This document shows, one piece after another, positions 182 through 31,837 of a stretch of 32,000 nucleotides of DNA. Position 1 is the first letter of the stretch. Each line of letters begins with the position of its first letter. Source of the stretch: Psychrobacter sp. DM4 (GTDB lineage Bacteria > Pseudomonadota > Gammaproteobacteria > Pseudomonadales > Moraxellaceae); assembly GCF_051307035.1 (NCBI RefSeq), contig NZ_CP195536.1, forward strand, positions 1,080,001 through 1,112,000, written 5' to 3'. The translations under genes and the position numbers were made by a program. Below the pieces are notes generated by a model, which did not search any database, was not told the origin of the DNA, and saw only the letters and a list, made by a program, of their open reading frames with translations.

Positions 182-540
182 GGGGATGTTCTGGCTTCGA
201 CGCTGGTGATGAAACTCAATGATGCATGTCGAGAGTATATGTCCTCTCGTTAATCCAACATATATTGTTATAGTCGCAAACGACGAAAATTACGCTCTAG
301 CAGCATAAACCCTGCTTACTAAGTTGCTGATCACCTACAGTTGGTCAACTAAGTTGAAGCGTCCGCATGTAGGCTCGCCACAAGCGATTGTCTCAATTGC
401 TTGGGTTCAAAAGTAGAGAATCGTTCAATCCATCCTGACTGTCGGATCGGTGCGAATTAAAGCCAAAGACAGAAACTAAACATGTAGATTCATGAGCGTA
501 ATGCTGGCGGACGCGGGTTCAACTCCCGCCATCTCCACCA
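182..540 (+). ncRNA. ssrA: tmRNA (SsrA), one-piece form; tag frame 276..308 encodes ANDENYALAA-stop
   Basis: 5' GGGGATGTTCTGGCTTCGACG and 3' GGACGCGGGTTCAACTCCCGCCATCTCCACCA form the tRNA-Ala-like acceptor/T-arm. Internal frame gca aac gac gaa aat tac gct cta gca gca taa is the canonical gammaproteobacterial degradation tag. Confidence 0.95.
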
Positions 541-774: not shown

Positions 775-1971
775 CTAGCCTTTTAATATTTCAGCCATAG
801 CATTAGCGACATAGTCAATATTATCAGTATTTAGACCAGCTACACACATACGAGAATTGGATACCATGTATATACCAAACTCGCTTTGTAGACGCTCCAC
901 TTGTTCAGGCGTGAGTCCTGTAAAGCTAAACATACCGTTTTGATCCGTCAAGTAATCAAAATTGCGGTCAGGAACGTGCGCCTCTAGTACTGATTTGAGT
1001 TTGAAACGCATGGATTTGATACGATCACGCATAGCATAAACTTCGCCAACCCACTGCTGATGTAACTCATCATCATTCATAACGATATCGACAACATGAC
1101 CACCATGTGACGGCGGGCTTGAATAGATACGACGTACGGTAAAGGCCAATTGACCAAAGACGCGCTCAGCCTCGTCAGGAGTCGGACAAACGACAGATAG
1201 ACCGCCAACACGCTCGCCATATAGCGACAAGTTCTTCGAAAATGAGTTACTGACAAATAATGGCAGCCCCATATCGACCGCTTTACGGATGGCGTAGGCA
1301 TCACTGTCCATATCTTCGCCAAAACCTTGATAAGCGATATCCATAAATGGAATTAGTTCATGCTCTTGAATCACGTTTAATACGGTATCCCACTGCTTGC
1401 GTGTCAAATCGACACCAGTAGGGTTATGACAACACGGATGCAAAAGTACGACGTCATTCTTATTCAAAGTTTTGAACAGTGCGATCATCTCATCGAATTT
1501 AATACCGCCTGTAGCCTTATCATAATAAGGATACTTGGCAACTTCAACATCACTACCTTCAAAGATAGCAATATGGTTGCCCCATGTCGGATCGCTAACG
1601 TAGCATTTAGACTGCGGGAACCACTCATTGATGAACTCAGCACCAACTTTTAGCGCACCAGAACCGCCGATAGTGGCAATGGTAGCGACCAGATTATCTT
1701 TTAATATTTGCGCGTCTTTGCCAAATAGTAGGTTCTGACAAGCCTTACGATGTCCAGGCAAGCCCTCCATCGGTAAATAGGGGCGAGGAGACACCGGATC
1801 AGCGATGCGCTTTTCTGCGATTTTGACGCATTCGAGTACCGGCAATTTGCCGTTCTCGTCGTAATAAACACCAACGCCCAAATTAACTTTGTTTGGGTTG
1901 CTATCTGCAACGAATTTATCTTTTAGCCCCAAGATAGGGTCACCAGCATAATAGTCGACACGTTCAAACAT
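775..1971 (-). CDS. tyrB: Class-I PLP aminotransferase, aromatic-amino-acid/aspartate type (TyrB/AspC family), 398 aa
   Basis: N-terminus MFERVDYYAGDPILGL resembles E. coli TyrB/AspC. SFSKNLSLYGERVG carries the PLP-lysine motif. AAGGA SD 7 nt upstream of the ATG. The TyrB versus AspC assignment is uncertain. Confidence 0.9.
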   Translation of the reverse strand: MFERVDYYAGDPILGLKDKFVADSNPNKVNLGVGVYYDENGKLPVLECVKIAEKRIADPVSPRPYLPMEGLPGHRKACQNLLFGKDAQILKDNLVATIATIGGSGALKVGAEFINEWFPQSKCYVSDPTWGNHIAIFEGSDVEVAKYPYYDKATGGIKFDEMIALFKTLNKNDVVLLHPCCHNPTGVDLTRKQWDTVLNVIQEHELIPFMDIAYQGFGEDMDSDAYAIRKAVDMGLPLFVSNSFSKNLSLYGERVGGLSVVCPTPDEAERVFGQLAFTVRRIYSSPPSHGGHVVDIVMNDDELHQQWVGEVYAMRDRIKSMRFKLKSVLEAHVPDRNFDYLTDQNGMFSFTGLTPEQVERLQSEFGIYMVSNSRMCVAGLNTDNIDYVANAMAEILKG

Positions 1972-2333
1972 ATTTTTTCCTTAAAATTAAAACCGCTAAA
2001 AAGCATAAACCAGATTGGCGATGAACTCAATACGCCTATAGAGATTTAGGTAAATTTACAGATAGACAAATTATACTATAGTGAAAAAATTTTCTAAGGG
2101 TAATATAAGTTTGCTTACAATAAGTTGCCGATTACTCAGAGTTTTGCACTGATACTACAGCGTGCATTGAAACATACAGACGAGGTAATACTATCCTTTG
2201 CTATCACCTTCAATACGCTTCTATGAAGTGAATGATGGAATTTGATCTATCTATCATAGGCATCTGACGCGAACAGGTAATAAATCATGGTTGTTTGTTC
2301 GAGCAACGAAAATAAAGCACACCCAAATGCTGT

Positions 2334-3332
2334 TTAAATCACCATACGCGAAAATTTGTTTTGATATTCTTTTGGCGTCAGCTCTGTTGCTCTTTTAAAC
2401 AAACGGGTAAAAGAGGAGATATCACTATAGCCCACTTGGTAAGCTAGCGACTTTATAGTCACTTGTCCTGATTCTAATAACCGCTTGGCCTGCTCAATTC
2501 TAACCGCCTGAATGTACTCAATAGGGCGCATCGCTACGCAAGCTTGAAAACGTCTGTTCAAGGTGCGCGGCGTGACATTGACCATTGTGGCTAGATCGCT
2601 CACTTGTAGTGGCTCATTGAAATTGCCTTCAATAAATTCTTGTACCTGCTTAACCAGCGTATCGGTATGCGACTTATGAATCGTCACATTGGTATAGCTA
2701 TTTTGACTGCCGCGCTTGCTATCGATGATCTGTGTTTTTGCAACCTGCGTTGAGACCTCGCGCCCGCAGTAACGCTCGATGAGTAATAGCGCCAAATCAT
2801 AAAAAGCACTGCCGCCTGCCGCACAAAATATATTACCCGATTGAGTGACAAATTGATCCTCTTGCAAGTTTACCTGCGGATATTCGTTTTTGAATTTATT
2901 TGCATAACCCCAATGCGTGGTCGCCGTTTTGCCATCCAACAGCCCAGCCGCCGCTAAGAAAAAAGCGCCACTACAGTTACTCGCGATATCGGCCTCAGTG
3001 CTGGCAAGACGTTTTAGATGCGCTAATAAAGCACTATTTTGCGTCAATACTTTATCGATAGAATCACCAATGGTTGGAATGAGTAGCAAGTCGCATTCGA
3101 TCACTTGGGCAATATCGCAGTGCGCTTGCATGATGAGACGGTTGCTACATTTGATGTCGTTTTTGCCAAGGCTTGCGATTTGTACCCTAAACTTTGGTTC
3201 TACTTCCAAATCTAAAAATCGCTGCCAGCTGACTCCTGTAAACGAGAACAAGTCTAACGCGCCAGCCAGTACGCTACTAAGCACGCCATCAAATCCAAGA
3301 ATGACAACTTCAAAAGGTTTTTGGCTGGGCAT
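2334..3332 (-). CDS. GlxA-family transcriptional regulator (DJ-1/PfpI-like N-domain plus AraC-type HTH), 333 aa from ATG 3332
   Basis: Class-I glutamine-amidotransferase-like N-terminal half and C-terminal AraC HTH (RTLNRRF...YQVGYSDISSFTRLFKR). I prefer the internal ATG at 3332 (MPSQKPFEVVILG) because AAGGAG sits about 10 nt upstream. The ORF-track start at 3410 adds 26 unlikely residues. Confidence 0.85.
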   Translation of the reverse strand: MPSQKPFEVVILGFDGVLSSVLAGALDLFSFTGVSWQRFLDLEVEPKFRVQIASLGKNDIKCSNRLIMQAHCDIAQVIECDLLLIPTIGDSIDKVLTQNSALLAHLKRLASTEADIASNCSGAFFLAAAGLLDGKTATTHWGYANKFKNEYPQVNLQEDQFVTQSGNIFCAAGGSAFYDLALLLIERYCGREVSTQVAKTQIIDSKRGSQNSYTNVTIHKSHTDTLVKQVQEFIEGNFNEPLQVSDLATMVNVTPRTLNRRFQACVAMRPIEYIQAVRIEQAKRLLESGQVTIKSLAYQVGYSDISSFTRLFKRATELTPKEYQNKFSRMVI

Positions 3333-7198: not shown

Positions 7199-9358
7199 CT
7201 AGCCTCGACGCCACGTCTGATACTTCTCGACGATGTCCAAAAGTTTTTCAGGGGCGTTATTGCGCTTCCAATTACCAGCGGCGTATTTATTGCCCTCAGC
7301 CCATGTCGGGTACATATGTATCGTACCAAGTATTTTGTTCAGTCCAAGATTATGTTTCATCGCTAAGATGAATTCACTCATAAACTCGCCCGCGTTTTCA
7401 GCGACGATAGTGACGCCAAGTATTTTGTCTTTACCTTTGGGCGTAATGACCTTTATAAAGCCATAATTAGCACTTTCAGTTACCGCGCGATCCAAATCCT
7501 TAAAATCATAATGCGTCACCTCAAAATCTATGCCTTTTTCAAGCGCTTCTTGCTCATTTAATCCCACACGCGCCACTTCTGGGTCAACAAAGGTTGTCCA
7601 AGGAATAACGCGATAATCAACTTTGAATTTTTTGAGATGACCAAATAGACCATTCACCGCTGCATACCATGCCTGATGCGAGGCCACATGAGTGAATTGA
7701 TAGGGACCAACCACATCACCTGCAGCGTAGATATTGGGATATAGGGTCTCCAAATATTCATCAGTATCTATCGTACGGTCAGTCGCAATTCCCAAGGCTT
7801 CTAGGCCATAGCCTTTAAGACGAGCACTACGACCCACCGCACAGATCAATTGATCATATTCAAAAGCGATCTCTTTTGAGTTACCCATAGCTTGAGCGAT
7901 AATAAACTTCTTATCACCGCGCCGCTCACAGCGGATAGCTTGATGTGAGGTCAAGACGTTGACCCCGCTTTGGGTGAGTACTTGCTCGGCAAGCTCTGAT
8001 ACCTCAACATCTTCTTTTTTGATCAAGCGCGCGCTACGCTCAATCTGAGTTACGTCAGAACTTAGGCGGGCAAAGGCTTGTGCGAGCTCCGAGCCGATAG
8101 GACCGCCGCCGAGTACCACAAGCTTCTTTGGCGCTTCATCGAGCTGAGTAAAGGTCTCCCACATCGTATCACTAGTCACGTAGCCTGTCTCCTCTAGCCC
8201 CGGCAAGTCTGGAATGAAGGGGCGCGCGCCAGTAGCAATGACGATTGAGCGCGCGGTTAGCCGCTGTATGCCGCCTTCGTTGAGGGCGATCTCTACCGTC
8301 CACGGATCGACAAAAGTAGCATAACCTTTTAGCACCTCAACGCCAAGCTCGGTATAGCGCTCCACACTGTCATTGGGCGCGATATCAGCGATTACCTTAT
8401 TGATGCGAGTCATAATGTTTTTAAAGTCAAATTGTGGCTCAGTATTATCAAGACCGTAGCGCTCGCCATGGCGCATCTGCTGCGCGACTTTGGCACTTTT
8501 GATGAGCGCTTTGCTCGGCACGCAACCATAATTTAGACAGTCGCCGCCCATCTCACCCGCTTCAATCAAAGTAACCTTTGCTCTTACTGTAGCCGCGATG
8601 TAGCTCGTTACTAAGCCGCCAGCCCCTGCGCCGATTACTATCATATTGCGATCGAATTTTTTGGGTTTGGTATAGTTTTTATAGACGCGACGTTTTGTGA
8701 TTAGGTTGATAATCGATTTGGCAATTAACGGAAACAGGCCCAGTAGCACAAAGGATAAAATCAAATTAAAGGAGAGTATGCCAGATAAACTCTCAATTTG
8801 TGCCAACTGCGTTCCTGCATTGACGTAGACAAAAGTGCCTGCAAGCATACCGAGCTGACTGACCCAATAAAACGTCCACGTCTTGATTGCCGTGAGACCC
8901 ATCAATAGATTAATAATAAAAAAGGGAAATATCGGTACTAAACGCAGTGTAAATAGATAGAATGCGCCTTCTTTTTTGACGCCATTATCAATCGACTCTA
9001 AGCGATCAGGGAAGCGCTGTTTGATAGTGTCACGCAGTAGGTAGCGCGAGACCAAAAACGCAAAGGTTGCACCAATACTTGAGGCAAACGAGGCGATCAA
9101 GACGCCTTGTACTAGCCCAAAGAGCGCACCTGCTGCTAAAGTCATAATAGCTGCGCCCGGCAAGGAGAGTGCCGTTACGAGTACATATAGTAAGAAAAAT
9201 CCACCGATAATCAATAGCGGCGACTGCGCCTTGTATTCATCAAACTGATCCATCGAGCCTTTTAGACCTTCAAGGGTCAATAAGTCATTAAGACCAAAAT
9301 AAAAAAAGCCAATAACCAGAATCACTACAACGAAGATAAGTGCTATTTTTTTTATCAT
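7199..9358 (-). CDS. Fusion protein: N-terminal DedA/TVP38 (SNARE-associated) membrane domain plus C-terminal FAD-dependent class-I pyridine nucleotide-disulfide oxidoreductase (Lpd/MerA-like)
   Basis: The first ~235 aa are polytopic membrane sequence of DedA type. Then GAGAGG Rossmann motif, redox-active GGDCLNYGCVPSK, a second NAD(P)H Rossmann GGGPIGSELA, and a dimerisation-domain HMYPTWAEG motif. ATG at 9358 (MIKKIALIF) is preferred over TTG at 9379. Confidence 0.85.
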   Translation of the reverse strand: MIKKIALIFVVVILVIGFFYFGLNDLLTLEGLKGSMDQFDEYKAQSPLLIIGGFFLLYVLVTALSLPGAAIMTLAAGALFGLVQGVLIASFASSIGATFAFLVSRYLLRDTIKQRFPDRLESIDNGVKKEGAFYLFTLRLVPIFPFFIINLLMGLTAIKTWTFYWVSQLGMLAGTFVYVNAGTQLAQIESLSGILSFNLILSFVLLGLFPLIAKSIINLITKRRVYKNYTKPKKFDRNMIVIGAGAGGLVTSYIAATVRAKVTLIEAGEMGGDCLNYGCVPSKALIKSAKVAQQMRHGERYGLDNTEPQFDFKNIMTRINKVIADIAPNDSVERYTELGVEVLKGYATFVDPWTVEIALNEGGIQRLTARSIVIATGARPFIPDLPGLEETGYVTSDTMWETFTQLDEAPKKLVVLGGGPIGSELAQAFARLSSDVTQIERSARLIKKEDVEVSELAEQVLTQSGVNVLTSHQAIRCERRGDKKFIIAQAMGNSKEIAFEYDQLICAVGRSARLKGYGLEALGIATDRTIDTDEYLETLYPNIYAAGDVVGPYQFTHVASHQAWYAAVNGLFGHLKKFKVDYRVIPWTTFVDPEVARVGLNEQEALEKGIDFEVTHYDFKDLDRAVTESANYGFIKVITPKGKDKILGVTIVAENAGEFMSEFILAMKHNLGLNKILGTIHMYPTWAEGNKYAAGNWKRNNAPEKLLDIVEKYQTWRRG

Positions 9359-9683
9359 GAATGATCCAGTTAAAGGCAAGAGTAGAGGTTGTCAGCACCG
9401 TTGTGCTTGATGAGATGATCATTAAAGTAGTTTTACGTTGAACGATTACTCAAATAAAATGAAAACAAGGTAATTAAAAGCATGGGCAATAGCATTGTAG
9501 TTGTTATTGAGTGTTTGTTCAAATTTATCTCAAAGGGCATTTATTTATCGCTATTGTTGGCTAGGCCTCACTAAACCATCACTCTTATAAGAATAAATAA
9601 GGTAGCATATACACATAAAAATATGAGCTTTATTCATATCGTTATTTACTATCATTTAAATATCACAAAGAAGGGTTATAAGC

Positions 9684-13891: not shown

Positions 13892-14614
13892 ATGTTAATT
13901 AACGCAGATTTTTCGTGTCGTGCTGAGCTACCCGCTGAAGAGCACCAATGGGTCAAGTCTCCACAGGGCGGCGTTGAGCGCGTGATGCTCGATCGCGTAG
14001 GCGCGGAAAAGGCGCGGGCGACCAGTTTTGTGTGTTATGCCCCAAACTCGCACTTTCCGCATCATCAGCATCCGGGCGGCGAGGAAATTTTAGTACTATC
14101 AGGTACGTTTTCTGCTGACGATACGCACTATCCTGCAGGCTGGTATCTGCGCAATCCGCCTGAGTCATCTCACACGCCCTTCAGTGATGAGGGAGCCGTT
14201 ATCTTTGTAAAATTGCGCCAGATGTCATCATCTGAAGATCGTCATGTCGCGATTGATACGTACGATAGCGCTAATTGGCAACGAGTAGTTGATCGCGACG
14301 TATGTCCTTTATACTCAAGTGAGAGCTCTATCAACAACAGCGAGCAGGTGAGTCTGCAGCGCTTGCAAGTAGATGAGGTATTGTTTACCGATGATCTACT
14401 TGCGCAAACGCTTATAGGTGGCGCAGAGCTGTTAGTAGTTAAAGGCTCGCTTATAGAAGGGGATCAAACGTATCTGAAAGATAGCTGGATACGTATGCCT
14501 GTAGGTACGCTGACCACAATAAAAGCAGGCGCGACAGGTGCGACCATTTATATTAAGACAGGACATCTTGCCCAGATCATTGGTGCGGATGTTGAAGGGT
14601 TAGAAGTTCGATGA
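13892..14614 (+). CDS. Cupin-domain protein related to the C-terminal cupin of anti-sigma factor ChrR; no anti-sigma zinc domain; 240 aa
   Basis: HHQHPGGEEILVLSGTF...YLRNPPESSHTP matches the ChrR-type cupin pattern. No HxxxCxxC N-terminal anti-sigma domain is present. Confidence 0.75.
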   Translation: MLINADFSCRAELPAEEHQWVKSPQGGVERVMLDRVGAEKARATSFVCYAPNSHFPHHQHPGGEEILVLSGTFSADDTHYPAGWYLRNPPESSHTPFSDEGAVIFVKLRQMSSSEDRHVAIDTYDSANWQRVVDRDVCPLYSSESSINNSEQVSLQRLQVDEVLFTDDLLAQTLIGGAELLVVKGSLIEGDQTYLKDSWIRMPVGTLTTIKAGATGATIYIKTGHLAQIIGADVEGLEVR

Positions 14615-14679: not shown

Positions 14680-15819
14680 ATGAAAAACACGTCTGTAGCT
14701 ATCATCGGTGGTGGTTTAAGTGGTCTGTACGCCGCTTATCTACTAGAAAAGCAAGGCTTGGATTATATCTTGATAGAAGCACGCCCTACTTTAGGGGGTC
14801 GTATTTTGAACAACATGCTTTTAAAGGGCACTAACCTTGAGCAGATGCCTGTGCAACAGCTCGATGCTGATACTGTATCAAACATAGATAGTTTTGACTT
14901 AGGACCGTCTTAGTTTTGGCCGGACTATCAGCCGCAGCTGAGTGCTCTAGTCGATGACTTACAGCTCAAGACTTTTGCACAGTTTGAAGAGGGTGATATG
15001 TTGGTCGAGCGTTCTCATCATGAGCCTGCTGTTCGCACGCTAGGGTTCAAAAGCTCGCCGCCATCTATGCGTATTGTAGGTGGTATGACAGCATTAATTG
15101 ACGCTTTATATAGCCGTCTTGATGCTAAAAGGGTAGTCACAAACCAAAGCGTAAAGAGCGTGTCTTACGCGGATAGTTCTGTAGAGATAATAAGCGAGGA
15201 CGCGTCTGGGCAAGTAACGATATGGCATACAAAGCAGGTGTTACTGGCATTGCCGCCTCGTCTAGTAGAGGCCAGCATTACATTTGAACCCAATCTCCCA
15301 ACTGATTTGAGTGAAGAATGGCGCAATACGGTAACTTGGATGGCACCTCATGCAAAATACTTTGCGGTTTACGATAGCCCTTTTTGGCGCGGGCAAGGTC
15401 TCTCAGGTGCAGCCCGTAGCTCGCAAGGTCCGATGGTTGAGATTCATGATGCGTCTATCACAGCTGGTAGTGGCGCATTATTTGGCTTTATAGGGGTACC
15501 TGCCTCTGTCCGTCAAAGTGTCTCGACAGAGGTGTTAAAAGATCATTGCCGCGCGCAACTGGTGCGCTTATTTGGTGAGCAAGCCGCTGCGCCAAAATGT
15601 GAGTACCTCAAGGACTGGTCACAGGATTTATTTACGGCGACCATAGCTGATGTTAGTAGTAATGGTCAGCATGCGTTAGCGCCTAGATCTAAATCAGCAT
15701 CTGGCGTATGGAGTGGTTGTCTGACAGGTATAGGTAGCGAGTGGTCACCGCAGTTCTCAGGATATTTAGCAGGTGCTATAGAAGCGGCAACCCTTGGTGT
15801 ACAAAGCCTGCCTAAGTAA
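14680..15819 (+). pseudogene. Flavin-containing amine oxidase / NAD(P)-FAD oxidoreductase interrupted by a single in-frame TAG at 14911..14913
   Basis: ORFs 14680..14913 and 14998..15819 are in the same frame (both start coordinates equal 1 mod 3). The interval 14914..14997 is open in that frame. N-terminal GGGLSGLYAAYLL dinucleotide-binding motif. Context is DLGPS-TAG-FWPDYQP. Confidence 0.8.
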
Positions 15820-16007: not shown

Positions 16008-16712
16008 ATGTCCAATAGTAATCCTTACAACTTTACGCCGCTCAAACCTACTGGTAGAAATGAGACAGACAACGTCAACACTTACTCGCCTGAGGACATG
16101 ATAACCATCTACGAGCAGCAGTTTCTTACCCAAGTGCCTGAAGATAAGCTGACCGAATTTTTGCCTACGCTAAAACGTTTTTATGATATCGACGATAATA
16201 CTTTAGATATCAGTGCGGTTATTTTTGACGCTATAGCGGATGCGACTATCATCTATAATCACAAAGTAAAAGTAGGCGAGTATCAGATCGTAGGAGACTT
16301 AGTCAAAGAAAACATTCAAAACAACGAGAATGATGAAGGCAATGAAAATAATGAAAGTACTGATGACCAAGCCTATACGATAGACTGTGTGCGCATGTTT
16401 TTTATCAATGATGTTAAGCTGGCTTATCACTTTAACTTATTTGTGCAAGGCGATGGTTATTCCACATTGACCAAAAAAGACACGGTACTTGAAAAAATAT
16501 ATTGGCTAATCAACGCAGGATTTGAAGAGCATTTACTAGGCGACCCTAATGAGTTGACGAGTTTAGAGTCTATCAACGAGGAGCTTGACCGCTTAGATAT
16601 TAGACAGATGGATCTGGCCACTATCCACCAATTGGTGAATTACATCGACGATCATATGATTGATGACGATATGATTGACGCGCTAAATACTGTAATAGAT
16701 GCTGCCGATTAG
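16008..16712 (+). CDS. Hypothetical, strongly acidic protein, 234 aa
   Basis: Clean ORF. By hand count, 47 D/E against 15 K/R. Contains an N/E/D low-complexity segment (NIQNNENDEGNENNESTDD). No recognised family. Confidence 0.6.
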   Translation: MSNSNPYNFTPLKPTGRNETDNVNTYSPEDMITIYEQQFLTQVPEDKLTEFLPTLKRFYDIDDNTLDISAVIFDAIADATIIYNHKVKVGEYQIVGDLVKENIQNNENDEGNENNESTDDQAYTIDCVRMFFINDVKLAYHFNLFVQGDGYSTLTKKDTVLEKIYWLINAGFEEHLLGDPNELTSLESINEELDRLDIRQMDLATIHQLVNYIDDHMIDDDMIDALNTVIDAAD

Positions 16713-17685: not shown

Positions 17686-18399
17686 ATGGAACCAAATCAC
17701 AATATTGTAGAACAAAGACCCGTGTTTATGCCTAAAGTCAACAGTGACAATCTGGTAAAAACAGACATGGTCAGGTTTGAGCGCCATGTCGGGTTTGCTA
17801 GTCGTCAAAAGAAAAAATCTATTAATGATTTGCACCAAGTTATCCGCAAAAAGTATGGCTTTAGCAACGTCTTAGAGATGTCTAGTAAATCGGGTAATAA
17901 GCTCAGTTTTTTGCTTAGTCCTCTTAGCTTACAGCTTACTGATGAGGATAGCGACGGCCATTACAGTGTCGAGAATATCTTTCAGGCGAGTAAGGTTTTT
18001 GAGCGCGGTGGCCCATATACCGACCTGCTAACTGCTGCGCCAAGACAAGCCAAAAAGGACGAGCGCTTACATAACTCAGGTCAGCTCGTGGGTTACAATG
18101 ATTTTGGTATGGAATGGGGTATAGAGCCACTAACCGTATTTTACGATTGGTTATACATCAATGCGCTAAAACAAAACACGCAGCTTCATGAACAAGTAAT
18201 GCAATATCAAGCCTTTACTGATATTGAGTTTAATCCCAAAAAGTCTATTCATAGTGCCGTTTATTCGCTAGCGATGTTTGTGGCGCTCAATAAGCGAGAG
18301 TTACTCGATAAAGTTGAAGACCCAGGCACGTTTTATGACTTGCATACTGAGTTTAAGGTCAGTAATACCGAGCAGTTTTTGGAGACAGGTTGGTTTTGA
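17686..18399 (+). CDS. Hypothetical protein, 237 aa, family not recognised
   Basis: Clean ORF with ordinary composition. The start is uncertain: an alternative ATG at 17728 gives MPKVNSD. Confidence 0.6.
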   Translation: MEPNHNIVEQRPVFMPKVNSDNLVKTDMVRFERHVGFASRQKKKSINDLHQVIRKKYGFSNVLEMSSKSGNKLSFLLSPLSLQLTDEDSDGHYSVENIFQASKVFERGGPYTDLLTAAPRQAKKDERLHNSGQLVGYNDFGMEWGIEPLTVFYDWLYINALKQNTQLHEQVMQYQAFTDIEFNPKKSIHSAVYSLAMFVALNKRELLDKVEDPGTFYDLHTEFKVSNTEQFLETGWF

Positions 18400-23154: not shown

Positions 23155-23379
23155 ATGTTAAAAATGAAATCGAACTGCGAGAAATGCAATTTAGATACAG
23201 GGCTTACTGCTGTAGCGTATATATGTTCATATGAGTGTACCTTCTGCGAAGCATGCAGCAAAAATATGGACTGCATCTGTCCAAACTGTCAAGGTAATTT
23301 AGTTCTTAGACCTATTAGAACCAAGAGTCCTAGGCAAGCTCTTGTGTCTAGGGTTAAGAAAAAAGTATTTGGTTTATAA
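23155..23379 (+). CDS. DUF1272 domain protein (Cys-rich, zinc-ribbon-like), 74 aa
   Basis: NCEKCN...CSYECTFCEAC...CPNCQGNLVLRPIR pattern. GGGGAAG SD. Confidence 0.8.
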   Translation: MLKMKSNCEKCNLDTGLTAVAYICSYECTFCEACSKNMDCICPNCQGNLVLRPIRTKSPRQALVSRVKKKVFGL

Positions 23380-23688: not shown

Positions 23689-23763
23689 TGGAGCGGGAAA
23701 AGAGATTCGAACTCTCGACCCCAACCTTGGCAAGGTTATGCTCTACCACTGAGCTATTCCCGC
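23689..23763 (-). tRNA. tRNA-Gly (anticodon GCC), 75 nt with encoded CCA
   Basis: The reverse complement gcgggaatagctcagtggtagagcataaccttgccaaggttggggtcgagagttcgaatctcttttcccgctcca folds as a cloverleaf. Anticodon loop is ttGCCaa. Near-identical to E. coli tRNA-Gly(GCC). Confidence 0.97.
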
Positions 23764-25894: not shown

Positions 25895-26215
25895 ATGATT
25901 TGGGCAAAGATGCTTATCGGTGCGCTCATGGTGTTATTAATACAACTTCTCGCACAAACTCGCTTTTTTTATTTAGCTGCTTTTGCTCATCTTTTTCCAA
26001 CCTTTACGCTCATTAGTCACTTTATTGTTAGCACTGAGCGTAGCGGTGCAGATCTAAAAGTCGCTTTGATATTTAGTATGCTGGGCGTCATACCGCACTT
26101 GATCTATACGCTCGTAGTCTTCTTCGGTATTAATTATATGAGCTTATACAAGGCGTTGCTATTAGGCGTGGTGGCATGGTCTATCGCCGCCGCTATATTA
26201 GTCCTCGCATGGTAG
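25895..26215 (+). CDS. glpM: GlpM-family small membrane protein, 106 aa
   Basis: Four predicted TM segments. LAQTRFFYLAAFAHLFPTFTLISHFIV parallels Pseudomonas GlpM (KTRNYYIAGLVPLFPTFALIAHYIV) as recalled. AGGAG SD. Confidence 0.75.
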   Translation: MIWAKMLIGALMVLLIQLLAQTRFFYLAAFAHLFPTFTLISHFIVSTERSGADLKVALIFSMLGVIPHLIYTLVVFFGINYMSLYKALLLGVVAWSIAAAILVLAW

Positions 26216-26290
26216 TATATACAATCTTGAGTTTGTACCAAAGGATACCGTTTCAAATCATCTTTAAATATAAAATCACTAAATAACAAA

Positions 26291-26320
26291 GCCAGCATCC
26301 TATATATCTAGAATGCTGGC
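26291..26320. terminator. Hairpin between convergent glpM and the Cys-rich ORF (likely bidirectional terminator)
   Basis: gccagcat-(14-nt loop)-atgctggc with ttt downstream on the plus strand and tttgttattt on the minus strand. Confidence 0.55.
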
Positions 26321-26370
26321 TTTATCACTAAATAATCGATTGCTGCCTTCACACTTGTTTTTGTTTAGGT

Positions 26371-26508
26371 CTAATCACACTGGCAGCAGTTACTACAGCA
26401 GTTACAGTTTTTGCAAGTAGCCTTACTACTACAATTACACTTGGTACAGTGACAAGTGTCGTCATCCATTGTCACGATGCTAGGTTTGGTCTTCGATAGA
26501 AAAGTCAT
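26371..26508 (-). CDS. Unlisted small ORF: 45-aa cysteine-rich (11 Cys) metallothionein-like peptide MTFLSKTKPSIVTMDDDTCHCTKCNCSSKATCKNCNCCSNCCQCD
   Basis: Hand translation of the minus strand. ATG at 26508 is preceded by AAAGGTG 5 nt upstream. TAG stop at 26371..26373, and the hairpin at 26291..26320 lies downstream. It is below the 60-aa cutoff of the ORF track. CxC and CC clusters are typical of metal-thiolate proteins. Confidence 0.5.
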   Translation of the reverse strand: MTFLSKTKPSIVTMDDDTCHCTKCNCSSKATCKNCNCCSNCCQCD

Positions 26509-26613
26509 AATCACACCTTTTTTAATGAAAGTCTCATTACTTCAGCAATAATGGCTTTTATATTGTGCTGTAGTGTTGTTAATTTAGTTTAAGAATACGA
26601 TGTTTTAGAGAAG

Positions 26614-27393
26614 TTAAAACAAAATATTAATATTTGAAACAATCATGACTATTCCACTCACAACCATCAGCGCTATGAGCATGATTCTAAACTGACGAAC
26701 ACTCATGCCTGCTAAGAAGTGCTTGCCTATGACATTGCCAAGTGCAGCGCCAAGTCCAAGCGCTAGACCATAGATCCAAAGTTGCGCAGTTAGTACGCCA
26801 AAAAAGGTATAACTGCCAATCTGTGCCAGCCCGACAAAGAATGAGTTGGCCGTTTTGGTAGCGATTAAGCGCTCTTTTTGTAAGCCTGTATTCATATAAA
26901 AAGGGTTGAGAATAGGGCCAAGACCACCCACTAGCGTACTGATAAAAGCGGTGACAAATCCTAATGGAACAAAGCCTGACTTTGGCATATCAAAGCTTTT
27001 ATCAATCTTGCCAAAGCGATATTGAAACACGGTAGAGACCAAAAACACACCGATCAAGAGCTGAATCCAGCTTCCCTCAAGTTGACTAAATAACAATGCA
27101 GCTAGCCACGCACCAACGATCGCACTGGGCACATAGTATTTGATGAGTGACCAGTCAATATCATGCCAAAATAGATACAAGCGCACAGGACGACTGATAA
27201 AAGTACCTAAGTTGATAATGGGCGGTGCGGCTGATGCTCCTACCATCCAAGAGGTAATAGGTATCAGCAGCAGAGCGCCGCCACCACCCGATAGTGTCGA
27301 GAGAATAAAAGCAAACATACCCATGACAAAGAGACCTGCTAGATGCCAAGCAGGTATGGTCTGCACAATATCAAAAACCGTATCTAAAATCAT
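26614..27393 (-). CDS. TauE/SafE (DUF81) family sulfite/organosulfonate-type anion exporter, 259 aa
   Basis: Polytopic membrane protein with the Gly-rich repeats characteristic of TauE/SafE (LSGGGGALLLIP; VGGLGPILNPF). Confidence 0.85.
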   Translation of the reverse strand: MILDTVFDIVQTIPAWHLAGLFVMGMFAFILSTLSGGGGALLLIPITSWMVGASAAPPIINLGTFISRPVRLYLFWHDIDWSLIKYYVPSAIVGAWLAALLFSQLEGSWIQLLIGVFLVSTVFQYRFGKIDKSFDMPKSGFVPLGFVTAFISTLVGGLGPILNPFYMNTGLQKERLIATKTANSFFVGLAQIGSYTFFGVLTAQLWIYGLALGLGAALGNVIGKHFLAGMSVRQFRIMLIALMVVSGIVMIVSNINILF

Positions 27394-27424
27394 AGTTGTC
27401 TACTCGAAGACTCAAACCGTCTCA

Positions 27425-28342
27425 CTACAGCAAGTAATGGTCCTGAATATGCTGAATGCATAGCTCATAAAAGGCAGCGGCGGCAGGAGAGATACTTTTG
27501 TCTCTTAACCTAAAGATACCAATTTGTCGCGTCAAGGTAGGCGCGAGCAAAGGTATCCATACCAGCTCTGGCTCATTGGCGGGAAAGGCGAGTTTAGGTA
27601 ATGTTGTAATGCCTAGGTCGTGACGAAGCAAGGAGAATAGAGAGGTAATATTTTCAACGGTATAGCGAGCTTGTCTATTGAGCGTTTCAGCAGGAGTGTT
27701 CTCAAGCAGGCGGCAAGTACCATTATAAATGAATGGCTGTCCGACCAATTGCTGCCATTTAAGACCATGCCGTAGTGACTTTGAGGATGCTTGTTTAGGC
27801 GTTATTAATTGCTGATACAAGGCATTACTCTTCAAACACACTACGCCGATAGGGTCTGATATGAGCGCGGTAAAGTCAATATCCGCCTGATCCATTCGAG
27901 CATCATTGCCCAATGCCAAGTCCACTTCGCCTGCCAATAACCGATTTGCGACGCCGATGGAATTATCATCGATAAGAACAATTTCAATATCAGGATATTT
28001 TTGTGAGTAGGCGGCCAGTACGCTTGGTAGCAGCTTTGTGACTAATGATGGCACACTTGCAATCCTAATCTTACCTTTGTTACCAGCCGCGAGTGATTTT
28101 AGATCTTCCTCTAACGTTTGAGCAGTATCTATAAATTGCCCAATCTTTGGTAGGCAAGATTCACCAAAAGCGCTAAGAATTGCGGTATTACCACTCTCAA
28201 ACAGTCTTTGACCGAGTGATTTTTCTAACTCTTTAATAGAAGCGGATAACGCAGCCTGCGTACGATTGGCGCGATCTGCTGCTGCGCGAAAGCCGCCTGC
28301 CTCTACCACCAATAAAAAGTGCCTTAACTGCTGTAACTTCAT
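27425..28342 (-). CDS. LysR-family transcriptional regulator, 305 aa
   Basis: N-terminal wHTH (MKLQQLRHFLLVVEAGGFRAAADRANRTQAALSASIKELE) plus a periplasmic-binding-fold effector domain. Confidence 0.92.
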   Translation of the reverse strand: MKLQQLRHFLLVVEAGGFRAAADRANRTQAALSASIKELEKSLGQRLFESGNTAILSAFGESCLPKIGQFIDTAQTLEEDLKSLAAGNKGKIRIASVPSLVTKLLPSVLAAYSQKYPDIEIVLIDDNSIGVANRLLAGEVDLALGNDARMDQADIDFTALISDPIGVVCLKSNALYQQLITPKQASSKSLRHGLKWQQLVGQPFIYNGTCRLLENTPAETLNRQARYTVENITSLFSLLRHDLGITTLPKLAFPANEPELVWIPLLAPTLTRQIGIFRLRDKSISPAAAAFYELCIQHIQDHYLL

Positions 28343-28418
28343 ATCTTATTTTCCGATAAATTCATATGTATTGAAGCAAATTCAAGCCGAGCTAATCATG
28401 CATAAGAACTATAACACG

Positions 28419-28437
28419 TGATAGATTAAATTTATCA
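28419..28437. promoter_or_regulatory. Candidate LysR-type binding site (TGATA-N9-TATCA dyad) in the divergent intergenic region
   Basis: tgatagattaaatttatca, read directly. It contains T-N11-A-type dyad symmetry between the LysR gene and the RidA operon. Confidence 0.35.
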
Positions 28438-28557
28438 TTATTAATATTTAATGAGTTAGATTTGTTAAGGTCAAAAGAGTAGCATAGATGCTAACCCAAG
28501 GAACGTCTAAGTATCCGCTGTGGCAAAGATACTCATCACTCAAAGGACTATTGTTAT

Positions 28558-28947
28558 ATGACCACTCACTCACCTAAGCAAGCTGTCAAAACCTCATTAT
28601 ACGCCTCAAAAGCACCCCTTGAGTGGGCCGTCACTAGCAACGGCACGTTGTACACCGCACAGATTCCTATCGATAATAAAGGTGAAGTCGTTAGCGGCGG
28701 TATCGAGGCGCAAACGCGTCAGACATTGGACAACCTAAAGCATACGCTAGAGAGCGCAGGCGTTGGTATGGATGCGGTACTCCAAGTGCTCATCTATGTG
28801 ACTGACCGCGAGTATCTAAAGACGGTCAATCAAGTCTATGCTGAATACTTTGAAGCGCCTTATCCAAACCGCGCCGCCCTAGTGATAGCAGGACTGGCAA
28901 GAGAAGAGATGCTTGTTGAGCTAGTCGTTTATGCTAGCGTCCCTTAA
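28558..28947 (+). CDS. RidA/YjgF/Endoribonuclease L-PSP family (reactive enamine/imine deaminase) protein, 129 aa
   Basis: Size and motifs (GIEAQTRQTLDNL...PNRAALVIAGLAREEMLVEL) are typical of the YjgF/RidA family. Confidence 0.85.
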   Translation: MTTHSPKQAVKTSLYASKAPLEWAVTSNGTLYTAQIPIDNKGEVVSGGIEAQTRQTLDNLKHTLESAGVGMDAVLQVLIYVTDREYLKTVNQVYAEYFEAPYPNRAALVIAGLAREEMLVELVVYASVP

Positions 28948-29011
28948 ATTTATAATTATAAAAATGTAATTTCATTACTCATTAGTTTCTCATCGTTTAT
29001 TAAGGATTTTT

Positions 29012-30487
29012 ATGTCAACTCAAACTGCCAAACCAGTATTACAACAAGACCCAAGCCAATCGATCTATATCAATGGTGAATGGCAAGCGGGCACCGATAC
29101 TATCAATAACATCAACCCCTCAGACATCAGCGAAAGCTTAGGTGCGTTTGCACAGGCAAGTACGGATCAAGTCAAAGATGCTATTGCTGCCGCCCGTCAT
29201 GCTCAGCCAAAGTGGGAGGCGACGCCACTTGAGAAAAAACAATCTATCTTACAAGCGATTGGCGATGAGATGATCGCTCGCTGTGATGAGCTGAGCACAT
29301 TATTGTCTCTTGAGGAAGGCAAACCCTTTGCCGAGGGTCGCGGTGAGATTTATCGCGCAGGACAGTTCTTTCATTACTACGCGGCTGAAGTACTGCGTCA
29401 AATCGGTGATACCGCAGATTCAGTCCGTCCTGGGGTCAAAGTTGAAGTGACTCGTGAGGCCGTCGGTGTAGTCGCAATTATCTCGCCTTGGAACTTTCCA
29501 ACGGCAACAGCGGTTTGGAAGATTGCGCCTGCCTTAGCCTTTGGTAATAGTGTCATCTGGAAGCCAGCCAATCTGACGCCAGCGAGCGCGGTCGCTATGG
29601 CTGAGATTATTCATCGTCAAGGTCTGCCAGAGGGCACGTTTAACTTGCTATTAGGTGGCGGCTCATCGGTAGGTGACGCGCTTATTCATTCAAAAGACAT
29701 CGACGCGGTGAGCTTCACAGGATCAGTATCGACAGGTCGCAAAGTCGCTGCCGCCACCGCGCCAAACTTTGTGCGTTGTCAGCTAGAGATGGGCAGCAAA
29801 AACGCCTTGGTTATCGCTGATGATGCTGATATGCAAGTCGCTGTAGACGCCGCAATCGCAGGCGCTTTTGGTGGTTCTGGACAAAAATGTACCGCCTCTT
29901 CACGCTTGATCGTCATGGACGGCGTACACGACGCTTTTGTTGATGCCATGATCGCGCGTATGAAAACGCTAAAAGTCGGTCATGCATTAGATGATGGTAT
30001 CTTTATGGGACCTGTCGTGGATGACAAGCAGCTCGCCTCAAATATGGACTGGGTCGAAAAGGGCAAGCAGGAAGGCGGTAATTTAGCCTTTGGCGGTGAG
30101 CGCCTAGAGATGGCCAATGATGGCTATTATATGTCGCCAACTTTGTTCACAGAAACTGATAACAGCTGGGATATTAACCAAGAAGAAGTGTTTGCGCCGC
30201 TGGCTTGCGTTATGCGCGCCAAAGATTTGGAAGAAGCAATTGCCATGACTAACGATACGCGCTTTGGTTTGACAGGTAGCATCATTACCCAGAGTCTGCG
30301 TAATAGCGCGATGTTTAAAGAGCAAGTGCAAGCGGGCTGCGTCATGGTTAATCTGGCGACGGCGGGTACGGATTATCATGTGCCTTTTGGTGGCCGTAAA
30401 GAGTCAAGCTTTGGTCCGCGTGAGCAAGGTCAGTATGCCAAAGAGTTTTATACCATCGTCAAGACCGCTTATCAAAAAGCGTATTAA
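29012..30487 (+). CDS. NAD(P)+-dependent aldehyde dehydrogenase, 491 aa
   Basis: ALDH superfamily: SPWNFP, FTGS, glutamate motif LEMGSKNA, catalytic cysteine GQKCTASSR. AAGGA SD. Confidence 0.92.
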   Translation: MSTQTAKPVLQQDPSQSIYINGEWQAGTDTINNINPSDISESLGAFAQASTDQVKDAIAAARHAQPKWEATPLEKKQSILQAIGDEMIARCDELSTLLSLEEGKPFAEGRGEIYRAGQFFHYYAAEVLRQIGDTADSVRPGVKVEVTREAVGVVAIISPWNFPTATAVWKIAPALAFGNSVIWKPANLTPASAVAMAEIIHRQGLPEGTFNLLLGGGSSVGDALIHSKDIDAVSFTGSVSTGRKVAAATAPNFVRCQLEMGSKNALVIADDADMQVAVDAAIAGAFGGSGQKCTASSRLIVMDGVHDAFVDAMIARMKTLKVGHALDDGIFMGPVVDDKQLASNMDWVEKGKQEGGNLAFGGERLEMANDGYYMSPTLFTETDNSWDINQEEVFAPLACVMRAKDLEEAIAMTNDTRFGLTGSIITQSLRNSAMFKEQVQAGCVMVNLATAGTDYHVPFGGRKESSFGPREQGQYAKEFYTIVKTAYQKAY

Positions 30488-30504
30488 TAAGATAAGGCGT
30501 AGAT

Positions 30505-30619
30505 GTAGGGTGGGTTAGTTTTTCAAGCTCTTGTAAAGAGTGCTGACAAAACGTAACCCGCCACTTTAAATGTAAATTGCTAAATGTCGGCGGGTTACGC
30601 TGTCGCTAACCCACCCTAC
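30505..30619. repeat. Nested REP-like palindromic element: four GGYGGGTTA units in alternating orientation
   Basis: Outer pair gtagggtgggttag (30505..30518) / ctaacccaccctac (30606..30619). Inner pair cgtaacccgcc (30552..30562) / ggcgggttacg (30589..30599). All read directly. Confidence 0.8.
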
Positions 30620-30662
30620 GTCAGAATTAAGTTTAAGAATGAGTCATAAGAGGGATATCAAT

Positions 30663-31652
30663 ATGTACCAAGATCATATCGTCATCGACGGTTTGCAGTA
30701 TAGCCACTGGGATCGCGACTACTTCAAGATGCTAAAAAATAGCGGTATCAATGCGATGCACGCCACCTTGGTCTATCACGAAGATGCGCGTCAGACCATA
30801 ACCCGTTTCGCTGAGTGGCACACTCGCTTTGAGCAAAATTCTGATTTGATTATGCCTGTATATTCGGTCAACGATATCCAAACGGCAAAAGAGCAGGGCA
30901 GGGTCGGTATCTTCTTTGGCGCGCAAAATTGCTCGTCTATCGATGATGAGATTGGTCTGATTAGCGTTATGCGCCGTTTAGGTTTACTCATCATGCAGCT
31001 GACGTATAACAATCAAAGCCTGCTAGCGACAGGTTGTTATGAGTCAAAGGATAGTGGGGTCACGCGTTTTGGTGAACAAGCGATAGCGGAGATGAATCGC
31101 GTCGGTATGATTGTCGATATGTCACACAGCGCTGAGCAGTCCACGCTTGAGGCGATAGAAGTATCGTCGCGTCCGATTTGTATCAGCCATGCCAATCCAA
31201 CTACCGCTCACGATGCGCTGCGTAATAAATCAGATACCGTTATTAGTGCTTTAACCAAAGCGGGCGGATTGCTTGGTTTTAGCTTATATCCCTTTCATTT
31301 GCCAAACGGTAGCGATTGTACGCTTGATGATTTTTGTACCATGATTGCCAACTGTGCGGATAAATACGGCGTAGAGCATTTAGCGATTGGTAGTGATCTA
31401 TGCCTAAATCAGCCCAAATCTGTACTTGAATGGATGCGTAACGGGCGCTGGTCCAAAGCGATGGATTATGGTGAAGGTAGTTCAAATAATTCAGGATGGC
31501 CGGATAATCTGCCTTGGTTTGCAGGTAAAAAAGGCATGGAAAATATCTATAACGGTCTGCTCAAGCATGGTTTTAACGAGTCTGACGCGGGCAAGATCAT
31601 CGGTCAAAACTGGTTTGACTTTTTGGAGCAAGGGCTTAAGCCTGCGCCTTAG
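30663..31652 (+). CDS. Peptidase M19 (renal/membrane dipeptidase) family protein, 329 aa from ATG 30663
   Basis: M19 amidohydrolase-fold pattern (VIDGLQ..., DMSHSAEQS, ISHANP, GSDL). AGAGGGA SD 7 nt before the ATG at 30663. The ORF-track start at 30639 has no SD and abuts the REP element. Confidence 0.85.
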   Translation: MYQDHIVIDGLQYSHWDRDYFKMLKNSGINAMHATLVYHEDARQTITRFAEWHTRFEQNSDLIMPVYSVNDIQTAKEQGRVGIFFGAQNCSSIDDEIGLISVMRRLGLLIMQLTYNNQSLLATGCYESKDSGVTRFGEQAIAEMNRVGMIVDMSHSAEQSTLEAIEVSSRPICISHANPTTAHDALRNKSDTVISALTKAGGLLGFSLYPFHLPNGSDCTLDDFCTMIANCADKYGVEHLAIGSDLCLNQPKSVLEWMRNGRWSKAMDYGEGSSNNSGWPDNLPWFAGKKGMENIYNGLLKHGFNESDAGKIIGQNWFDFLEQGLKPAP

Positions 31653-31837
31653 CATTAAGAACCTTGCAAGCATAGCTATTTACTACCGTTAAAAGTCACT
31701 TCGCTATAAAGCACCTGCTGCTTCATAGCGCTCATTGTCATTTAGAGATACAGATTTTAGAGGATAATTATCCTATTTAGACTCTCATTTGATTTGTACC
31801 TTAGTTAATTTTGATGCAACAGGACTGGAGCCATACC

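Follow-up and report, generated by a model that had tools for sequence, protein, structure and literature searches.

Does an uncalled 45-codon open reading frame (ORF) at the end of a LysR-TauE gene pair in Psychrobacter sp. DM4 encode a genuine protein and, if it does, of what kind? The ORF lies on the minus strand of a 32,000-nucleotide stretch of the DM4 genome (assembly GCF_051307035.1, contig NZ_CP195536.1, positions 1,080,001 to 1,112,000; hereafter the window, in whose coordinates positions are given). An earlier note on this DNA, made from the letters alone, had described its product as a metallothionein-like peptide with 11 cysteines (Cys). For bacteria, only two metallothionein (MT) families with a studied biological role are on record, SmtA/BmtA and MymT (PMC7387436). 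Here, we find that the ORF is very probably a protein-coding gene under purifying selection and that, as judged by our searches, it is an orphan of one Psychrobacter sub-clade. The function that we favor, a metallothionein-type metal and redox buffer, has about an even chance of being the right one.

Translation of 26371..26508 on the minus strand gives MTFLSKTKPSIVTMDDDTCHCTKCNCSSKATCKNCNCCSNCCQCD, followed by TAG. Residues 1-18 form a Cys-free N-terminal segment and residues 19-45 a Cys domain of 27 residues with the pattern C-x-C-x2-C-x-C-x5-C-x2-C-x-C-C-x2-C-C-x-C. All 11 Cys are placed within residues 19-44 as CxC, CxxC and CC motifs. The clustering that had been noticed at first reading is thereby confirmed, and so are the ORF sequence itself, the Shine-Dalgarno (SD) sequence 5 nt from the ATG and the TAG stop. 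The peptide has a mass of 4.92 kDa, a Cys content of 24% overall and 41% within the Cys domain, and a grand average of hydropathy of -0.35, with neither a signal peptide nor a hydrophobic segment. It contains a single aromatic, Phe3 of the N-terminal segment; the Cys domain is free of aromatics in five of the six alleles described below, the allele of strain DM8 having Tyr32. An alternative GTG start 2 codons upstream would give a peptide of 47 residues, and allele L081 is without it. We take the ATG as the start, given that it is common to all alleles and that its spacing from the SD sequence fits. In 300 Markov-simulated 32-kb sequences with the dinucleotide statistics of the window, the maximum was 5-8 Cys per stop-free stretch of 27 residues, compared with the 11 observed here. 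A density that the simulated sequences never reach, their limit being 8, is not due to chance.

Relatives were sought among loci with TauE homologues, using one genome per species, and among loci from the two closest TauE clusters. An uncalled ORF of like kind sits directly 3' of the orthologous TauE gene in five further loci, which together with DM4 gives six distinct alleles (Table 1). The earlier note had proposed to look for frameshifts and stops in orthologues and for preserved Cys codons with synonymous drift, and the outcome speaks for a gene. The reading frame is intact in 6/6 alleles and starts from the same ATG behind an SD sequence (AAGGAG, AAGGA or AAAGGTG); its one indel, in L081, is a 3-nt in-frame insertion. 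No other frame is open in all six, each having stops in some allele. In the protein, 10/11 Cys columns show no variation, with drift between TGT and TGC at their codons. DM4 and DM8 differ at 22/135 coding positions, divided 2/7/13 over codon positions 1/2/3, and the ratio of non-synonymous to synonymous substitution rates (dN/dS, Nei-Gojobori) is 0.087 over the whole ORF and 0.033 within the Cys domain, compared with 0.091 for the adjoining TauE gene. Under neutrality such a synonymous excess has a binomial P of ~1e-5. Across all allele pairs dN/dS ranges from 0.09 to 0.34, the variable columns per codon position are 9/13/19, and the six alleles need at least 17 synonymous and at least 25 non-synonymous events, over ~23 synonymous and ~112 non-synonymous sites.

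The gene has escaped annotation, as the earlier note had anticipated. The exact peptide, in its 45- or 47-residue form, and all other alleles are absent from ~15 billion predicted proteins, a collection that does contain the neighbouring DM4 TauE protein (WP_435980395.1, 100% identical). The ORF is therefore unannotated in its own genome, and no related locus has a gene call at its position. Homologues of the peptide were found neither in a word-indexed set of 5.8 billion clustered proteins nor in an exhaustive phmmer/HMMER scan of 1.84 billion protein representatives. Pfam (E up to 1), NCBIfam (E up to 10) and the PDB (E up to 10, with a profile and with the Cys domain alone) gave no match either, in line with the claim that the peptide stands outside the known bacterial MT families. 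Metagenomes, scanned twice with different degenerate patterns, viral contigs and plasmids (tblastn) likewise returned no relative, and literature on Psychrobacter metallothioneins, on a link between TauE and metallothioneins and on strains DM4 and DM8 held nothing relevant.

The distribution is narrow. A Cys-density scan, relaxed tblastn and blastn over 84 loci (L001-L084) recovered orthologues only, and the ORF is present only where the TauE protein is >=86% identical to that of DM4. It is absent from the remaining 79 loci of the genome scan, including ~45 from Psychrobacter with TauE <=81% identical, and a spread through Psychrobacter and the Moraxellaceae, where the earlier note would have searched for it, was not borne out. 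Other Cys-dense stop-free stretches (e.g. in L002 and L071) were rejected as off-frame artefacts with no relation to TauE. The ORF is also missing from locus L087 and from locus L088, the latter despite RidA / aldehyde dehydrogenase / LysR / TauE synteny and a TauE 79% identical; in L088 a convergent gene starts 27 nt past TauE. Within the ORF (26384..26450) are two DNA repeats, one of 20 nt at 80% identity with a spacing of 33 nt and one exact 10-mer with a spacing of 12 nt. Both spacings are multiples of three, which suggests growth by in-frame duplication. Hence, the Cys domain seems to have expanded by in-frame internal duplication within one Psychrobacter sub-clade.

What the peptide does has to be read from its composition. 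The sequence-level parts of the metallothionein definition are present: small size, Cys content, motifs and a near absence of aromatics. With 11 Cys in 45 residues and the CxC/CxxC/CC motif types, the metallothionein-like character proposed at the outset holds up. As a metallothionein-type buffer, the 4.9-kDa peptide would be cytosolic, largely unfolded alone, and would wrap around several soft metal ions, the 11 thiolates of its C-terminal 27 residues forming a metal-thiolate cluster. Expression would come from the end of the LysR-TauE unit, either on a TauE co-transcript or from a conserved upstream element of its own, and would stop at a strong terminator. Metals would thereby be buffered or detoxified, and the thiols could also scavenge oxidants. 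The alpha-domain of mammalian MTs uses 11 Cys for four M(II), and in fungal and mycobacterial copper metallothioneins (Cu-MTs) 6-8 Cu(I) are bound by 7-10 Cys. The analogous capacity of 11 Cys could be ~3-4 Zn(II)/Cd(II) or ~6-8 Cu(I). We infer metal binding, cytosolic location, stoichiometry, regulation and cooperation with the permease from features of this kind.

The metallothionein-type reading is favored because the Cys domain fits soft-metal thiolate clusters and because MymT gives a precedent. The ORF for MymT of M. tuberculosis was at first non-annotated as well; its product, Cys-rich and of 4.9 kDa, binds up to 6 Cu(I) in a thiolate core (PMC7558416). Like the Psychrobacter peptide, it is very small (4.9 kDa), Cys-rich, lineage-restricted and was initially missed by annotation, which makes it the best functional analogue; it is cytosolic, as is proposed here. 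However, MymT belongs to another phylum and shows no sequence similarity to the peptide (NCBIfam and the searches of 5.8 billion and 1.84 billion proteins). The peptide has more Cys (11) in a different spacing, and MymT is copper-induced.

The SmtA/BmtA family (PF02069), to which PmtA and the Pseudomonas MTs belong, resembles the peptide in being small, bacterial and Cys-rich. Its members carry a single Zn or Cd cluster, Zn4Cys9His2 in SmtA and Zn3/Cd4 Cys9His in the PflQ2 MT (PMC7387436). In contrast, the peptide has no match to the family profile (Pfam, E up to 1) nor to the 1JJD and PflQ2 MT structures, the residues of the zinc-finger-like fold are missing, there is no conserved His ligand, and no SmtB-type repressor adjoins the gene. 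The eukaryotic MT domains (the mammalian alpha-domain and fungal Cu-MTs, among them Neurospora MT and yeast Cup1) have a similar domain size of ~25-31 residues, a mix of CxC/CxxC/CC motifs, Ser/Thr/Lys/Asn fillers and growth by internal repetition, and the alpha-domain has an equal Cys count. The likeness to eukaryotic MT domains that the earlier note had pointed out stands for composition but not for sequence similarity, given that HMMER finds no solved MT (E up to 10) and no Pfam MT family. The peptide also has an extra Cys-free N-terminal extension of 18 residues. The gene is thus a candidate for a third, unrelated bacterial lineage of metallothionein type, and its constant association with a TSUP permease is novel.

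Several observations weigh against a metallothionein. The assignment is drawn from composition, and neither an MT family nor a solved MT is homologous to the peptide. In the 32-kb window there is no metal-sensing regulator (MerR, ArsR/SmtB or CsoR type), metal efflux pump or chaperone, metal-resistance genes were not found there, and the regulator next to TauE is of the LysR type. One Cys is lost in DM8, where Cys32 is replaced by Tyr (C32Y). The one His reported earlier is present in DM4 at residue 20, but this position is H/N/R among the alleles, so that His20 is no fixed ligand. Several non-Cys residues of the Cys domain are strongly conserved (N25, S27, S28, A30, T31, K33, S39 and Q43), which exceeds the needs of a simple thiolate sponge and could reflect a specific partner or modification. 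AlphaFold without an alignment returned a low-confidence model (mean predicted local distance difference test score, pLDDT, of 65). Finally, the allele sample is small, comprising six alleles from one sub-clade, some of them near-identical.

The neighbourhood of the ORF, summarized in Table 1, bears on both its expression and its function. The ORF begins 105 nt after the end of the TauE gene on the same strand, as the earlier note had stated, with the LysR gene on the far side of TauE, and adjacency and co-orientation with TauE are kept at 6/6 loci, though the downstream genes change. Beyond the terminator, DM4, L082 and L085 have GlpM and an indolepyruvate-decarboxylase-like thiamine pyrophosphate enzyme, and DM8 and L084 have unrelated genes to which no function is assigned. 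The unit is conserved as a whole of ~310 nt that comprises the upstream element, the SD sequence, the ORF and the terminator.

Table 1 Features of the cysteine-rich peptide locus and the alleles compared (window coordinates).
Feature	Coordinates	Strand	Details
Cys-rich peptide ORF	26371..26508	minus	45 codons, ATG to TAG
Shine-Dalgarno sequence AAAGGTG	26520..26514	minus	5 nt ahead of ATG at 26508
Conserved non-coding region 5' of ORF	26523..26593	minus	from locus alignment
Block 1 of this region	26593..26565	minus	CTTAAACTnAnTTAACAACAyTACnGCAC
Block 2 of this region	26553..26523	minus	includes candidate -10 hexamer CATTAT/CATAAT at 26553..26548
TauE/SafE (TSUP) family permease gene	26614..27393	minus	PF01925, E = 2e-30
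LysR-family regulator gene	27425..28342	minus	31 nt upstream of TauE
Intrinsic terminator hairpin and T-rich tail	26282..26329		between convergent genes; 20-pair stem
glpM	25895..26215	plus	convergent with ORF, beyond terminator
Allele L001			Psychrobacter sp. DM8
Allele L082 = L083 (identical)			GCA_052258425
Allele L084			GCA_947495055
Allele L081			run ERR13858334 (Logan contig)
Allele L085			run SRR30674298
Divergent patches of L081	31150-31101, 29400-29251, 28250-28151, 27300-27051, 26600-26404		relative to DM4

The hairpin at 26291..26320 that had been seen downstream of the ORF is present as the core of the longer stem 26329..26282, which has a folding energy of -39.1 kcal/mol (z = -7.6 compared with dinucleotide shuffles) and is retained in the other alleles despite base changes. 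Given its site between convergent genes, this terminator may also end glpM. On the other side of the ORF, conservation in the locus alignment resumes ~20 nt past the TauE stop codon, and in the two blocks the other alleles share 79-81% identity with DM4. In the DM8-type alleles (L084, DM8 and L082), identity is 47-51% in the spacer just 5' of the blocks and 36-62% in the stretch from the stop codon to the terminator; in the mosaic allele L081, both flanks are 98-100% identical to DM4. Block 1 is confined to loci that carry the ORF. Between TauE and the ORF, a scan for sigma-70 promoters gave no hit, and the candidate picked by eye is a plausible -10 hexamer without a -35 element, an arrangement seen at activator-dependent promoters. 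The 5' region gave no convincing consensus RNA structure (-5.4 kcal/mol), and Rfam returned only sub-threshold hairpin matches, to mir-9424 and Thr_leader. The conserved region is probably a promoter/operator or an element of the 5' untranslated region; the gene may have a LysR-dependent promoter of its own, in place of or besides co-transcription with TauE. A motif common to the upstream block of the ORF and the LysR-RidA intergenic region (TTAACAAnnCTA) was rejected, given an estimate of ~8 chance matches.

The LysR gene is divergent from an operon for RidA, an aldehyde dehydrogenase and an M19 dipeptidase. The top NCBIfam model of the regulator, 'selenium metabolism-associated LysR', scores 119 bits against a cut-off of 250, which is a lead and not a membership call. 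In the divergent LysR/RidA intergenic region (28343..28557), the central ~110 nt are near-invariant across the sub-clade, and the perfect palindrome ATTAAATATTAAT at 28452..28440 is a plausible candidate for a LysR operator of the T-N11-A type. The substrates of TSUP permeases are uncertain, and the family groups with NiCoT (Ni/Co) and ArsP (organoarsenical) transporters in the TOG superfamily (PMC7176098). The TauE label leaves the substrate of the neighbouring permease unfixed, and any functional tie of the peptide to TauE or LysR would be drawn from position.

The locus of allele L081 needs a separate comment. Over positions 26000..31700 of the window it matches DM4 at 100% identity outside five patches, each 150-250 nt long and 15-20% divergent; the upstream block and ORF codons 1-35 lie in one of them. 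Diversifying selection over the ORF was considered for this spike and rejected, given that 5 kb contain five mosaic patches of similar kind, this one included. The divergence therefore looks like recombination between lineages or a chimera of a mixed-strain assembly, with nothing specific to the ORF.

The strongest alternative, second in rank and in our view unlikely, is that the peptide is no metal store but acts with the TauE-family permease as its sulfur- or redox-linked partner. It could be a thiol/persulfide or sulfite (S-sulfonate) buffer, or it could dock on the permease as a small accessory subunit or as a factor for cargo delivery. The strict adjacency and co-orientation with TauE, even where the downstream genes differ, fit such a partner, as does the conservation of non-Cys residues and of the N-terminal segment, which would be expected for a specific protein contact. 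At locus L087 a TauE paralogue (80% identical; 815..1588) adjoins a Lactamase_B and Rhodanese fusion of the persulfide dioxygenase type (1665..3053, minus strand), which makes a sulfur link of the TauE family plausible. This context suggests sulfite or another sulfur oxyanion as the substrate of the family in at least some settings. It is this sulfur context, together with a label that does not fix the substrate, that places the partner second. However, most Psychrobacter have a syntenic LysR-TauE pair without the peptide (L088; L002-L046), and the literature on TauE/TSUP systems shows none with such a partner.

The metallothionein-type reading can be extended so that the permease has a part in it. 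The peptide would then be the founding member of a new bacterial family of metallothionein type, recently born by in-frame duplication in a Psychrobacter sub-clade and forming a three-gene module with the TSUP permease and LysR, in which the permease moves a soft metal, metalloid or reactive sulfur species that the peptide has captured in the cytosol. To this more specific version we assign a rather low probability.

A precursor of a ribosomally synthesized and post-translationally modified peptide (RiPP), with a leader of 18 residues, a Cys/Ser/Thr/Asn-rich core and enzymes encoded elsewhere, is improbable, be it of the SCIFF/ranthipeptide, thiopeptide/LAP, lanthipeptide or bufferin type. The layout of the ORF in two parts, a Cys-free N-terminal segment followed by a Cys/Ser/Thr-rich core, the strong conservation of core residues and a length of 45 residues, typical of precursors such as SCIFF, would all suit it. 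SCIFF, a clostridial family, comprises ranthipeptide precursors with six cysteines in forty-five residues, and the peptide resembles them in length and in its Cys-rich C-terminal half but matches no NCBIfam model of them and has no adjacent radical-SAM maturase. Other precursor families in NCBIfam or Pfam gave no match either, and neither a leader motif nor a cleavage site is recognisable. A survey of every window ORF of >=100 residues and of the flanks of L001 and L081-L085 found no radical-SAM, YcaO, lanthipeptide synthetase, MNIO/DUF692, peptidase or ABC exporter gene. The proposal of the earlier note that the ORF might be a leader-plus-Cys-core precursor hence found no support, given that maturation enzyme, peptidase and exporter are all lacking in the 32-kb window and in the related loci.

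It is highly improbable that the region is non-coding, whether as a chance ORF or as a conserved RNA or DNA element in which this frame is open by accident. Gene finders never call the ORF, whose sequence is short and low in complexity, some stretches are free of nucleotide changes (e.g. AAGTGTAATTGTAGTAGTA), and the adjoining non-coding block shows a degree of conservation close to that of the ORF itself. Against this stand the synonymous excess and third-position drift, the in-frame indel, the retained SD sequence and start, the single frame open in all alleles and a Cys density far above chance, as well as the lack of an Rfam family and of any predicted stable structure besides the terminator.

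Least probable of all is a cysteine-sensing leader or attenuator, in which stalling at Cys codons under scarce Cys-tRNA alters the expression of a neighbour, as polycysteine short ORFs do in mycobacteria (bioRxiv 10.1101/834739): a terminator does follow the ORF and Thr_leader gives a weak Rfam match below threshold (23 bits compared with a gathering score of 55), but position rules it out, because the ORF comes last in its unit and the terminator and a convergent gene (glpM in DM4, another in DM8) leave nothing downstream to control, amino acids outside the Cys codons are under a purifying selection that a pure codon sensor does not need, and no anti-terminator pairing was found, the terminator stem alone being predicted (pairing between ORF and terminator was not searched systematically). 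The mycobacterial polycysteine ORFs are also short, unannotated and dense in Cys codons (bioRxiv 10.1101/834739). However, they are leaderless, come first in their operons and control downstream genes, whereas the Psychrobacter ORF has an SD sequence, comes last with a terminator and convergent gene after it, and has a protein sequence under selection.

Other features of the window stand apart from this locus. A gene at 17686..18399 (plus) encodes a DarT1-associated NADAR antitoxin (PF22397, E = 4e-84), and upstream of it a 234-residue ORF at 16008..16712 (plus), with no Pfam match, may be a DarT1-type ADP-ribosyltransferase toxin; a DarT1-NADAR toxin-antitoxin or defence pair is possible. A DUF1272 protein of 74 residues with 10 Cys (23155..23379, plus; E = 5e-21) is encoded 3 kb from the peptide ORF, to which its sequence is unrelated, and adjoins tRNA-Gly(GCC) at 23689..23763. 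At 7199..9379 (minus) is a 726-residue fusion of a VTT/DedA-type membrane domain and a pyridine-nucleotide-disulfide oxidoreductase of the mercuric-reductase / dihydrolipoamide-dehydrogenase type. The flavin amine-oxidase gene at 14998..15819 (plus) matches its profile from position 196 of 443 and may be truncated, mis-started or a pseudogene; it adjoins a ChrR-cupin anti-sigma-like gene at 13892..14614. A transfer-messenger RNA gene at 182..540 (plus) encodes the tag peptide ANDENYALAA.

Only a few Psychrobacter strains are known to carry the gene, whose function is deduced from the amino-acid make-up of its product. Six intact alleles in public assemblies, with 0 among ~15 billion predicted proteins, show how completely such a small gene can escape annotation, and the internal repeats and narrow distribution make it a tidy example of recent small-gene birth. 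The constant adjacency to TauE/TSUP provides a handle on the cargo of that permease. A third, unrelated metallothionein lineage, if true, would broaden the view of how bacteria buffer soft metals or oxidants, and if the module with the permease is real, it would add to a new metallothionein lineage the first small-protein partner of a TSUP transporter.

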